This document shows positions 971 through 7,670 of a stretch of DNA of 64,000 nucleotides, one piece after another (position 1 is the stretch's first letter; every line of letters starts with the position of its first letter). Position numbers and translations under genes: made by a program. The notes beneath the pieces were generated by a model. It had not been told where the DNA came from. It made no database searches and saw nothing but the letters and a program-made list of their open reading frames with translations. Source of the stretch: an uncultured Actinomycetes bacterium (GTDB taxonomy: Bacteria > Actinomycetota > UBA4738 > HRBIN12); NCBI GenBank assembly GCA_963826185.1, contig CAWGVY010000005.1, positions 142,391 through 206,390 on the forward strand. The letters are read 5' to 3'.

Positions 971-2035
971 GTGACGCTCGCCCGCACGAAGACACCCCTG
1001 CTGGTTCTCCTGACGGCCGTCCTGGTGACCGCCATGCTCCAGGTCGGACCGGTGGCTGCTGATGCGCGTACCCACGGCGTGGGCGGGTGCTTCCACCCGG
1101 ACGAGCCTCGCCGTTTCCACCGTCACCTGGTGCGGGCCATCAGGATCTCCCGTGATCTCCCCACGAGCTGGGCGGACTCGCCCTTCATCGCGAAGATCGT
1201 CTGCTGGCAGGGGACGGATTTCCAGACAGACTTCATCGACCACGGTCGGGCCTACTACGACTGGCACGGGATGTTCGCGATGACCACGCAGGAGGTCCAG
1301 ACGATCTTCGGGACGTGGATGACCGCCTCGCGGGACGCGTTCGTGCTCACCCCGAAGTGTTTCGTCCATGGATGGGACGGGTGTCCCCACCGCGCGGCGA
1401 ACGCCGCCGTGATGCAGCAGATCATCGCGGGCCTCCGATGGATCTGGCTGAACTACGGCACGCCCACGGCCGCCTGGGGTCACATCAAGCGGACCGGCCG
1501 CTTCAACTCCTACCCGAGGCCCGGGACCGACGACGAGCCCACCCGTACGCCCTTCCGACGCTGTCCGGTTGGGGGTGGCGTCCACTACCGGGACGGCTTC
1601 GGCGAGACCCGAACGGTCGGCGGCTACCACCCGCATTGGGGCACCGACGTCATCGCTCCACCCGGCCGGCCGATCCGTGCGCCCTTCGATGGGTTCGCCG
1701 TCACGCACAGCGACGATTGGTTCGCGGGACACTGGGTCACGGTGGTCGGCGAGCAGGGCTACGTCCGGAACGATCATCTGGGCCGCTTCGCCAAGCGAGG
1801 CTACGTCCACGCGGGCGACGTGATCGGCTACGTGGGCGCCACGGGTGACGCCCGCGGTCCCCACGATCACTTCGAATGGCACCCATGGTCGGTCCCGACG
1901 CCGCGCCATCGCTCACCGTTCGGGTTCAGCCTCATCATGGACGCGATCGATCCTTACCCGTTCCTCAACAAGGTGTGCGGCGCGCGAAGAGCGCCGCTCC
2001 CTCGAACAGCCGAGTGGTACCCCTTGGAGGGCTAG
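971..2035 (+). CDS. secreted M23/LytM-family metallopeptidase
   Basis: Track ORF 971..2035. Signal-like N-terminus MTLARTKTPLLVLLTAVLVTAMLQVGPVAADA. C-terminal M23 zinc motifs HPHWGTDV and GATGDARGPHDHFEWH. Confidence 0.85.
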   Translation: MTLARTKTPLLVLLTAVLVTAMLQVGPVAADARTHGVGGCFHPDEPRRFHRHLVRAIRISRDLPTSWADSPFIAKIVCWQGTDFQTDFIDHGRAYYDWHGMFAMTTQEVQTIFGTWMTASRDAFVLTPKCFVHGWDGCPHRAANAAVMQQIIAGLRWIWLNYGTPTAAWGHIKRTGRFNSYPRPGTDDEPTRTPFRRCPVGGGVHYRDGFGETRTVGGYHPHWGTDVIAPPGRPIRAPFDGFAVTHSDDWFAGHWVTVVGEQGYVRNDHLGRFAKRGYVHAGDVIGYVGATGDARGPHDHFEWHPWSVPTPRHRSPFGFSLIMDAIDPYPFLNKVCGARRAPLPRTAEWYPLEG

Positions 2036-3065
2036 ACCAAGACGCAGGCGGCCCGGTGGTGCTGTCCCTCGGTGCCGCGCGCCACGTGCAGCTCGGGGTC
2101 CGTGACCCTGCACCGATCTTCGGCGACCGGGCAGCGCGGGTGGAAGCGGCATCCGCTCGGTACGTCGATCGGGTTCGGCGTCTCCCCTTGGAGGATCTGG
2201 GGCACCGCACTGTCGCGCGGGTCGCGTTTCGGTACCACCGACATCAACGCCTCCGTGTAGGGATGCTGGGGGTTGCCCACCACCTCGCGGGCCGCACCCT
2301 CCTCGACGATGCGGCCCAGATACATCACGGCGATGCGATCGGCGAAGTGCGCCGCGGTGGACAGATCGTGCGTGATCATCACGATGCCCATGTCGCCGTC
2401 GCGCCGGAGGCGGTCCAGGATGGTGAGGATCCCGGCTCGGACCGAGACATCCAGCATCGATACCGGCTCGTCGGCCAGCAGCAACTTCGGGTCCAGCACC
2501 AGGCTCGCGGCGATCGCGACACGCTGGCGCTGACCGCCCGAGAGCTCGTGCGGGTAGCGATCGATGAACAGGTCGGCGGGGGATAGCTCGACGCGCTCGA
2601 GCGCCTCGATGATCCTGCGTTCGCGCTCCTCCGAGGTCCCGGTGATCCCGTGGATCAGCAGCGGTTCCTCGATCGGCCCGGCGGACACGGAACCGCGGGT
2701 CGAGCGACTCGTACGGGTCCTGGTACACCATCTGGATCGTCCGGCGGATCGGGCGGAGCTCCTTGGACGACAGGTGCGTGATGTCGCGACCGTCGACCTC
2801 GATCGTGCCGGAGGTCGTCTCGACCATGCGCAGGATCGCCTGCGCCGTCGAGGTCTTCCCGCAGCCCGACTCGCCGATCAGCGCGAGCATCTCGCCCGGG
2901 CGGACCGAGAGCGAGACGCCGTCGACCGCCGAGACCGTCCTTACGCGGCTCCCGCCGGAGCACGGCGGTCAGTCCACGCCGCACGGGGTACTGCACGACG
3001 AGATCGTGGACGTCCAGGAGCAGCGTGCCTTCCGGTGGGCATCGGGCCGCGACGGCATCGTTCAT
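2032..3065 (-). pseudogene. Opp/Dpp-type ABC ATPase (OppF-like), frameshifted
   Basis: ATG at 3065 overlaps the upstream stop (ATGA). [35 protein letters not shown] and QHPYTEALMSVVP are present but spread over three frames (track ORFs 2655..3377, 1913..2890, 2032..2688). Frame switches lie near 2955 and 2690. Confidence 0.7.
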
Positions 3066-4073
3066 CGCGCAGCCTCCCGATCGCCCGGCCGTTCGAACGA
3101 CGCGTCGTTCAGGTGGCAGGCAGCCTGGTGTCCCGCCGACCATCCAGCAGCGCGGGCGTCTGCACCGCGCAGGGCTCGAACGCGTGGTCGCACCGCGGCT
3201 CGAACGGACACCCATCGATCGGCCGGTCCAGGCGCGGGCGGCGCGCCAGGGATCGACTGACGCCTCGCCGGCCGAGATGTCGGGCGTGGCCGCGAACAGC
3301 AGCCGCGTGTAGGGATGGCGAGGGTCGTGAAAGAGCGGGTCGACCGCGCCGGACTCCGCGACGCGCCCCGCGTACATGACGATGGCGCGCTCGCAGACCT
3401 GCGTGACGAGGGGCAGGTCGTGGGTGACCAGGACGAGCGCCAGGCCCAGGTCCTGCGTGAGCGTTCTCCAGCAGCTGGAGGATCTGCGCCTGCACCATCA
3501 CGTCGAGCGCCGTGGTGGGCTCGTCGGCCAGCAGCACCTTCGGGTTGCAGGCGAGCGCCATCGCGATGGCCGCGCGCTGACGCATGCCACCGGAGAACTC
3601 GTGCGGGTACCGCTTGGCCGCCGACGCGGGCAGACCCACCAACTCGAGCAGCTCGCCGGCCTCGCTTGTCCGCCTCGGCGCCTGAGGCAGGTGTCGTGGA
3701 ACCGCATCGGCTCCACGATCTGCGACCCCACCGTCTTCACGGGGTTCAGCGCGTTCATCGCGCCCTGGAACACCATGGCGACGTCGGTCCACCGATGGGG
3801 TCGCATCGCGTCCTCGCCGCCGGGCAGGAGCTCCTCGCCGTTCACCGTCACGCTGCCGGCCACCTCGGCGTTGGGCGGCAGCAGTCCCATCAGGGCGAGC
3901 AGCGCCGTGGTCTTGCCGCAGCCCGACTCGCCGACGAGCCCCAGTCGCTCGCCCTCGTTCGACCGCGAACGCCACGCCCTGCACGGCGTGCAGCCGTCCA
4001 CCGTGCGGCAGGTCGAACCACACGTGCAGGTCCGCGCGCCTCGAGCAGGCTCAGCGGGGCCGTCCTCGACCAC
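3062..4073 (-). pseudogene. Opp/Dpp-type ABC ATPase (OppD-like), multiply frameshifted
   Basis: Pieces lie in track ORFs 3890..4549, 3109..4023, 3498..4619 and 2655..3377: [96 protein letters not shown]. At least 7 frame switches. Proposed GTG start at 4073. The TGA at 3062..3064 overlaps the oppF-like ATG. Confidence 0.65.
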
Positions 4074-5982: not shown

Positions 5983-6010
5983 GCGGCTCCTCCTCGGATC
6001 CCGCGCGGCC

Positions 6011-7670
6011 TCAGGCCTGGTGGATCGGCTGAACGGAGCCTTCGAGAGGTTGTTGAACAGGCCCAGCACGGACTCGTGGTCGTCGAACCCGACCCAGTCG
6101 TTGGACCACGCGTCGATCACCTGGTTGTAGTTCAGGATGATGTAGGGCCGTTCGTCGAACGCGATCTGTTGCATCTGGTGCACGATCTCCAGACGCTTGG
6201 CCGGCTCGATCGCGAGGCCCTGTGCCAGATAGAGCTTGTCGTACGTGGGATCGTCGAAACCCGAGTCGCTCCAGCCACCCCACTGGGCCTTCGTCAGCAC
6301 GGACAGGATGAAGTCCGGGTCGATCAGCGGGAACCAGTCCCACATCGCCAGGTCGAACTGGTTGTAGGTGTTGTCGTCGCCCAGGATCGCGGTTGCACGG
6401 CGTCGTTGTCCATCTTCCGCTGCGTGATCTGGATGCCGATCTTCTCGAACCCGTTCTGGATGATCCGGAACGCCGCGTCGCCCGCGCCCGTCTCGTCGCT
6501 CGCGAACAGGACCGTGTAGCTCATGGGATGGCCGTTCGCGACACGGATGCTGTCAGCACCCTTCGGCGTACCCGGCCTGATCCAGGAGCGCGTTGGCCTT
6601 GTCGATGTCGAACGGCAGTCCCTGGATCTGCGAGTCGTGCCAATCGCCGGTGGCGGGGGCGACGATGGTCGATCCCGGCTCGGCGTAGCCGAGCCACGCC
6701 GTCTTCACGATGGCGTCCCGATCGATCGCGTACTCCATCGCCTGCGGACCTTCGGGTCCAGGAGCTCGAGGTTCTCCGTCTTCTCCGGGCTCGAGTTGAT
6801 GATGAAGTCGCGCAGCGTGATGCCCGGGCCGTTGTACACCGTGAGCGACGCGTCGCCCTTCAACGCTCGACTGCGGTGACCGGGACGTTGATGGCCGCCT
6901 GGATCTGCCCGTTCTGCAGGGCCGCCACCATGGAGTCGTCGTTGGAGAAGTACTGGAGCCCGAACCCGTCCATCGCCGGCTTGGGTCCGTAGAAGTTCGG
7001 GTTCCGCTGGAAGATCACCACCTGGTCCTTCTCGTACTTGGCCAGCTCGAACGGACCGCCGCTCACCAGGGGTTGGTCGGTCGGCTCGTTCGGGAACTGC
7101 CGGAGCGCCTTCCCGTCGCCGACCGCGTACGGCTGCCACACATGCTGGGGGAGGATCGAGATCTGCTGCAGGTTCGACAGGACGTTGGCAACCGGCGCCG
7201 AGTAGGTGAGGACGAGGGTGTCGTCGTCTGTGGCCTTCGCATCCGTCATGTGGGTGAGGCCGCCCGACAGGTTGGCAGCCGGCCCGTCGCCGATACTTGA
7301 GGATCGTGCCGAAGGTGAAGGCGGCATCTTTGGCCGTGAGGGGTTGTCCGTCCGACCATTCCGCGCCCGGCTCGGTATGGAAGGTCCACGTGAGCTCGTC
7401 CGCGGAGGTCTCCCACTCCTGGGCGAAGTCAGGGACGAACTCGAAGGTCTTCTCGTCGTACTGGACGAGCTGCGGGTAGATGTACTCGAAGGTCGAGTAG
7501 GAGTTCTGCTGGAAGGTGACGAAGGGGTTCAACGTATCGATGTTGGACAGCGTGCCCAGGATCAGGTGTCCGCCGGTATCGGCGTTGCTCTGGTCGCCGC
7601 CGCCGGTGCATCCCGACGCCACGATGGCCGCCACTGCGATCAGAGCCGCGAACCTCTTCGACATCCGCAT
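6011..7670 (-). pseudogene. family-5 peptide/nickel solute-binding lipoprotein (OppA/DppA-like), multiply frameshifted
   Basis: ATG at 7670 follows GGGGAGGGG. Lipoprotein signal MRMSKRFAALIAVAAIVASGC. SBP-5 pieces sit in track ORFs 6705..8021, 6860..7327, 6553..6738, 6324..6524, 5683..6345 and 6011..6343. Switches lie near 7300, 6865, 6740, 6555, 6395 and 6040. Confidence 0.65.

Follow-up and report, generated by a model that had tools for sequence, protein, structure and literature searches.

A 64,000-nucleotide stretch of DNA from an uncultured Actinomycetes bacterium (positions 142,391 to 206,390 of contig CAWGVY010000005.1, assembly GCA_963826185.1; hereafter the window) carries on its minus strand, at 2032-7670, a five-gene operon of the oppA-B-C-D-F type that is broken by 33 one-base insertions and deletions (indels). 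The resulting frame shifts are very probably consensus errors of the deposited contig and not mutations of the organism, and the indels are most likely not a biological feature. Judged from the sequence, the genes beneath them almost certainly encode an ordinary, functional and selectively maintained Opp/Dpp-type ABC importer. This explanation is favored because the operon shows no excess of substitutions, keeps its invariant residues and contains no stops, and because the indels are all 1 nt long, are random with respect to homopolymers and are matched by similar damage in two unrelated genes. The number, size, placement and sequence context of the indels, the absence of a decay signature and the patchy recurrence of the damage in unrelated genes are direct observations on the deposited sequence.

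Results

The importer operon can be read only by changing frame

In a three-frame translation, conserved pieces of the operon, including the motif GCPFEPRC, are spread across all three frames. Pfam domains are likewise divided between overlapping open reading frames (ORFs): one ORF carries positions 14-80 of ABC_tran and a second ORF positions 79-137, while positions 1-49 and 62-183 of SBP_bac_5 lie in different ORFs. A plot of the G+C content at third codon positions (GC3) in this window of ~70% G+C changes phase ~17 times over 2.0-7.7 kb and holds a constant phase in the flanks, and GC3 within the segments of the operon is still 0.9-1.0.

The shifts were counted by comparison with intact orthologous operons, three from species genomes (L001-L003) and one from a 46-kb JGI metagenome contig (L082), the last of which has all five opp genes open and is the closest intact operon. 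A custom frameshift-aware protein-to-DNA alignment (BLOSUM62, frameshift penalty of 15) requires 30 shifts relative to L082 (6 + 9 + 5 + 8 + 2, from A to F); relative to L002 and L003 it requires 5-6 in A, 9 in B, 4 in C, 8 in D and 2 in F. No in-frame stop lies on the corrected paths in the alignments to L002/L003 or to L082, and the frame-corrected proteins share 84-91% identity with those of L082. When the DNA is aligned with that of L082 by MAFFT (86% nucleotide identity), 33 one-base indels are found within 2032-7670, 32 of them coding; the lone non-coding indel, at position 6003, is in the spacer between the A and B genes. As deposited, the sequence thus lacks the five unbroken reading frames of such an operon, by 30 shifts in the protein alignment and 32 coding indels in the DNA alignment. 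The relatives passed through the same alignment have no real shifts (L002 and L003) or one (L001), which places the window operon far beyond background. The single shift of L001, a Nanopore genome, is in its oppD gene at ~12057.

The features of the operon are as follows.

6011-7670, minus strand: oppA-like gene for a solute-binding lipoprotein (solute-binding protein family 5); 6 one-base indels, at 7293, 6866, 6743, 6566, 6394 and 6028 (frameshift-aware and DNA alignments)
5987-5995, minus strand: ribosome-binding site GAGGAGGAG, 5' of oppB
5009-5982, minus strand: oppB-like permease gene; 9 one-base indels, at 5853, 5787, 5745, 5700, 5544, 5502, 5462, 5448 and 5396
4019-5012, minus strand, 3' end approximate: oppC-like permease gene; 4 one-base insertions, at 5005, 4915, 4658 and 4536
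Variable C-terminal tail of the oppC-like gene: 1-2 further indels, at 4079 and 4054
3062-4054, minus strand: oppD-like ATPase gene (ABC_tran and oligo_HPY); 8-9 one-base indels, at 4033, 3957, 3688, 3664, 3465, 3275, 3258, 3235 and 3137
2032-3065, minus strand: oppF-like ATPase gene; 2 one-base insertions, at 2942 and 2676; final 640 nt clean
2676-7293: indel-dense block 1; 33 one-base indels (19 insertions and 14 deletions), ~1 per 144 nt, reaching neither end of the operon

Once frame-corrected, all five proteins give end-to-end Pfam matches and form a typical Opp/Dpp-type importer. The oppA-like product, which has the lipobox IVASGC in the three-frame translation, covers positions 1-363 of the 368 in SBP_bac_5 with 252 bits, as expected of a family-5 binding protein. 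Two permeases are present: the oppB-like protein matches positions 1-183/184 of BPD_transp_1 together with BPD_transp_1_N, and the oppC-like protein matches both OppC_N and BPD_transp_1. The two ATPases, oppD- and oppF-like, each match ABC_tran over 2-137/137 as well as oligo_HPY, which in the oppD-like protein is covered over profile positions 2-65/65. The sole pointer to the substrate is the annotation of homologues in their sources, for example 'peptide/nickel transport system'.

The operon resembles other Opp/Dpp-type importers (PepT family, TC 3.A.1.5; here the actinobacterial L082, L001, L002 and L003) in its A-B-C-D-F gene order, its translationally coupled ATGA overlaps (5009-5012, between oppB and oppC, and 3062-3065), its lipoprotein family-5 binding protein, its two permeases, the second with OppC_N, and its two ATPases with oligo_HPY tails. 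It differs from these relatives in that, as deposited, all five of its genes are interrupted (30-33 shifts), and in that its flanking genes are unlike those of all relatives retrieved.

These results agree in most respects with a first-pass annotation of this DNA, which had been made by eye and had described an OppA-B-C-D-F-like operon that could not be read without hopping between frames. The identification of the genes proved right by Pfam after frame correction, and the frame hopping is confirmed by 30 shifts at the protein level and 33 one-base indels at the DNA level. The switch positions given there match the indels to within ~15 nt; the total of at least 27 holds as a minimum and is slightly low against 30-33. 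Frameshift-aware alignment, named beforehand as the test of that count, did not need far fewer hops (30). The statement that no in-frame nonsense codon had to be invoked is borne out on the corrected paths. The ATGA overlaps and the ribosome-binding site lie where the annotation had placed them, and the lipobox and the other motifs that it quoted are visible in the three-frame translation.

Substitutions and conserved residues show no decay

When an operon truly decays, as in Mycobacterium leprae, indels are accompanied by many substitutions, by stops, by deletions of varied size and by an eroding codon bias. Lineage-specific substitutions were therefore assigned by parsimony in a five-way alignment with three outgroups. 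At codon positions 1, 2 and 3, the window lineage has 43, 30 and 108 substitutions, and the lineage of the intact L082 operon has 45, 24 and 107. Amount and purifying pattern are equal in the two lineages, third-position bias included, so the window operon is without sign of relaxed selection. The excess amounts to about +5 substitutions (181 window-specific against 176 L082-specific; standard deviation ~19, estimated as the square root of 181 + 176), compared with 33 indels.

The conserved residues give the same picture. Of 579 residues that do not vary among up to 40 orthologues, the frame-corrected proteins retain 576; the 3 differences compare with 0-9 in intact orthologues. In simulations, 33 unselected substitutions change ~7 invariant positions, 130 substitutions change ~26 and create 3-4 stops (probability of no stop ~0.03), and 330 substitutions change ~64 and create 8-9 stops. 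The opp genes thus have zero in-frame stops where 3-9 would be expected at a substitution-to-indel ratio of 4-10:1, and the corrected MFS and DinB-like genes described below have none either in frameshift-aware alignment. In natural mutation, as followed in mutation-accumulation studies, several to at least 10 substitutions arise per indel. The ratio observed here is inverted relative to the natural one, and this inversion, together with the substitution pattern, the retained residues and the indel spectrum described below, points to a selectively maintained operon overlaid by a layer of indel-only noise.

All operon indels are single bases placed at random

In the alignment to L082, all 33 frame-breaking indels of the operon are exactly 1 nt long. 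The only other length differences, of 21 nt and 3 nt, are both in frame, and neither larger deletions nor insertion sequences were found in the operon. The homopolymer run at the indel site has a length of 1 in 21 cases, 2 in 11 and 3, the maximum, in one. These run lengths match the per-base null (0.61, 0.285 and 0.08 for lengths 1, 2 and 3), so the placement is random and is not that of replication slippage. When the contexts were viewed by eye, no common motif around the indels was seen beyond GC richness. Natural one-base indels gather in runs, and pseudogenes show varied indel sizes and a deletion bias; none of these traits, neither a link to homopolymers, nor varied sizes, nor a bias towards deletions, is found in the operon.

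No indel falls in the last 640 nt of the operon or in its first 377 nt. By our own estimate from the indel positions, two clean ends of this length have a probability of ~0.012 x 0.07 under a uniform rate of 1 indel per 144 nt.

Two unrelated genes of the window are broken in the same way

The whole window was scanned with a Viterbi path over codon usage, which replaced a nucleotide-position hidden Markov model that mislabelled strands in short segments. Two further indel-dense blocks were found:

35214-36037, minus strand: block 2, a gene resembling DinB and the N-terminal domain of mycothiol maleylpyruvate isomerase; 4-6 shifts
44270-46034, plus strand: block 3, an EmrB/QacA-type MFS transporter gene; 12-14 shifts, ~1 per 104 nt

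In block 2, the MDMPI_N domain is split between frames, and frameshift-aware alignment to two homologues (P0372 and P0373) places the shifts at 35752, 35547, 35425 and 35265, with less certain ones at 35522, 35391 and 35368. The C-terminus of a further DinB-like database protein, P0364 (220 aa), is out of frame. In block 3, pieces of the MFS_1 profile lie in three frames, with shifts at 44394, 44704, 44841, 45013, 45051, 45307, 45404, 45436, 45476, 45612, 45692, 45729, 45796 and 45851; once stitched together, the protein aligns along its whole length with intact proteins of 538-584 aa at 86% identity. The neighbors of both blocks are intact, namely a glyoxalase gene at 34674-35215 and a SnoaL-like gene at 43861-44299, directly upstream of the MFS gene. 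The damage, which the first-pass annotation had described for the operon, is thus not unique to it, as two unrelated genes are broken alike.

The remaining ~57 kb contain at most two candidate single shifts, at ~9945-9958 and ~39160, beside short G or C runs; Pfam gave no confirmation for either. By our own count, the indel density of the three patches exceeds that of the rest roughly 200-fold. The first candidate lies on the plus strand in a gene (~9680-11358) for a TPR-repeat regulator of the LuxR/GerE family; in the N-terminal part of this regulator, the coding signal changes frame beside two GGGG runs. The second, on the minus strand between the ORFs 39005-40195 and 38017-39195 and beside a CCC run, would make one protein of a multi-pass membrane domain and a class III adenylate/guanylate cyclase domain. 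The frame of the cyclase stays open for ~340 nt beyond the end of its coding signal (~38355 to 38017) and overlaps the convergent gene at 37256-38267. Stop-separated segments in the same frame at 48.2-49.1, 13.5-14.4 and 8.7-9.1 kb were considered as further damage and were rejected as separate small genes.

Flanking genes and the public record

The operon lies between two uninterrupted genes:

971-2035, plus strand: M23 peptidase gene, 354 aa, convergent with oppF; GC3 phase, HDHFEWH motif and Pfam Peptidase_M23
7777-8715, minus strand: gene of the ornithine cyclodeaminase/mu-crystallin family, 312 aa; Pfam match over 18-312/314, homologues of 312-319 aa

That both flanks are intact had been claimed at first reading, and Pfam and translation bear this out. 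A minus-strand ORF at 179-1909 (576 aa) was rejected as the left-flank gene: it is a shadow ORF antisense to the M23 gene, has no Pfam match and shows the wrong pattern of G+C at codon positions 1 and 2. Long spurious antisense ORFs are frequent across the G+C-rich window. Gene order around these loci is fluid, and neither the opp operon nor the cyclodeaminase keeps its neighbors among the relatives (L161, L162, L001-L003, L082). Synteny through the cyclodeaminase in its nearest relatives, L161 (86%) and L162 (82%), revealed no adjoining operon and no conserved flank, and was uninformative.

In a public protein collection, the cyclodeaminase (P0001, 100% identical) and the M23 peptidase (exact sequence) are singletons from one NCBI/ENA contig of 224,468 bp. 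Broken fragments are present as singletons from the same contig: a 218-aa OppF piece (P0121, ORF 2032-2688), Opp pieces of 219, 220 and 240 aa, the first of which corresponds to 5012-5668 in the oppB-like gene, and a 382-aa MFS piece. Since the fragments are in the public collection, the errors sit in the deposit. The next-best homologues are 86% identical for the cyclodeaminase and 90% for OppF.

Discussion

Origin of the indels

The contig is proposed to contain patches of unpolished single-base indel noise, at ~0.7-1% per base, in an otherwise clean sequence. These patches would span ~4.6 kb at 2.68-7.29 kb, ~0.5 kb at 35.27-35.75 kb and ~1.5 kb at 44.39-45.85 kb. We infer a long-read metagenome assembly, Nanopore- or PacBio-CLR-like, as the source, and a local failure of polishing as the reason: the patches may have been supported by very few reads, or co-existing strains may have supplied reads that conflict, so that sequence close to the raw state would have survived the polishing there. 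Two properties expected of long-read errors are found here, in that indels far outnumber substitution errors and in that the damage recurs in functionally unrelated genes (ABC importer, MFS, DinB-like).

The case resembles the known consensus indels of long-read assemblies, as revealed by the truncated-protein test of IDEEL, in that one-base indels fragment the gene calls and greatly outnumber substitutions; it also concerns a long contig from a metagenome, and the nearest relatives of this contig are Nanopore-only. Those relatives are metagenome-assembled genomes made with Flye and one round of Medaka (PMC12313526). Consensus indels that cause frame shifts are a documented weakness of Nanopore data below ~40x coverage (PMC9262707). 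The residual errors of a polished Nanopore consensus are usually in homopolymers and are thinly spread (PMC9262707), whereas those of the window are independent of homopolymers, reach ~1 per 100-150 nt and are confined to three patches.

Four observations weigh against consensus error as the explanation. First, the homopolymer enrichment of polished Nanopore consensus is not seen; the non-homopolymer context would be closer to raw or unpolished noise than to a systematic residual error, and would need a special local cause. Second, each dense block is contained within one gene or operon and the neighbors, 50-640 nt away, are intact, as inactivation by gene unit predicts; by a rough estimate, the joint chance that randomly placed blocks would fit single genes or operons is low. 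Third, insertions (19) outnumber deletions (14), which is not the usual Nanopore bias. Fourth, no second assembly of the species was found among GTDB species genomes and JGI metagenomes (relatives at most 78% identical, with a fragment as query).

Alternative explanations

A particular form of consensus error, somewhat unlikely as the specific source, is a mixture of strains, in which single-nucleotide differences between two haplotypes would have been written with both alleles kept (+1) or with neither (-1). Many insertions do resemble a codon that has gained an alternative base at a site where variation is synonymous or natural (TA[T]C, GC[C]G, AC[A]C, TC[T]G and CGG[C], inserted base in brackets), and A[C]GC occurs where relatives have Ser or Thr, according to a manual reading of the contexts. 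Such a mixture would also account for indel-only, context-independent errors in kilobase-scale patches. The codon positions lend it little help: by manual assignment, the slot between codon positions 1 and 2 holds 3 of 18 coding insertions where 6 are expected (binomial P ~0.10), a lean towards strain differences that is not significant, and the deletions, spread about equally over the three codon positions and including the T of a conserved ATG at 6743, do not suit third-position differences. By sequence alone, a strain mixture is inseparable from plain low-coverage noise.

Real pseudogenes are an improbable explanation. Inactivation would have struck the operon and, in separate events, the MFS and DinB-like genes, all of which would since have gathered frameshifts, as in reductive genome evolution. 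The disruptions are present in the deposited sequence, each damaged stretch is inside one gene or operon with intact immediate neighbors, and the operon, which is apart from the cyclodeaminase in the nearest relatives, could be dispensable accessory DNA. Multiple frame disruptions between intact neighbors are also what the window shares with decaying operons of the Mycobacterium leprae type, but the marks that accompany such decay are all missing. The substitutions are not in excess, the invariant residues are kept, stops are absent and GC3 within segments stays high; the indels are single bases outside homopolymers with an insertion and not a deletion bias, no larger deletion or insertion sequence is present, and the ends of the operon are indel-free. 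The first-pass annotation had offered an indel-inactivated transporter and an error-rich stretch of the assembly without ranking them; of these, the second is favored here and the first is strongly disfavored.

It is very doubtful that the indels are real in the DNA as products of an indel-biased, locally targeted mutational or editing process in this uncultured actinobacterium, a process that might take the form of a recent gene-targeted inactivation by one-base indels or of an insertion/deletion RNA editing that restores the frame. Programmed recoding, with the shifts undone during expression by frameshifting of the ribosome, by slippage in transcription or by RNA editing of the insertion/deletion type, can be dismissed with near certainty: it has in its favor only that the coding information between shifts is perfectly preserved, and it would need ~50 sites in both directions and with all four bases, at positions that offer no slippery heptamer or homopolymer tract (no run exceeds 3 nt, and 21 of 33 have run length 1) and at which the orthologues of the operon in L082, L002 and L003 are unbroken. 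To our knowledge, no such recoding system exists in bacteria.

Implications

With consensus error as the preferred explanation, the window serves as a warning about data quality, in that a public metagenome-assembled contig would carry kilobase-scale patches of ~1% single-base indel noise. Such artefacts can be told from real decay without reads, by the size spectrum of the indels, a homopolymer null, lineage-specific substitutions by codon position and the retention of invariant residues. The noisy patches split intact genes into fragment ORFs, which are already present as singleton 'proteins' in collections. Fragments of this kind would raise pseudogene counts, lower estimates of completeness and calls of metabolic capacity, and seed spurious protein families.

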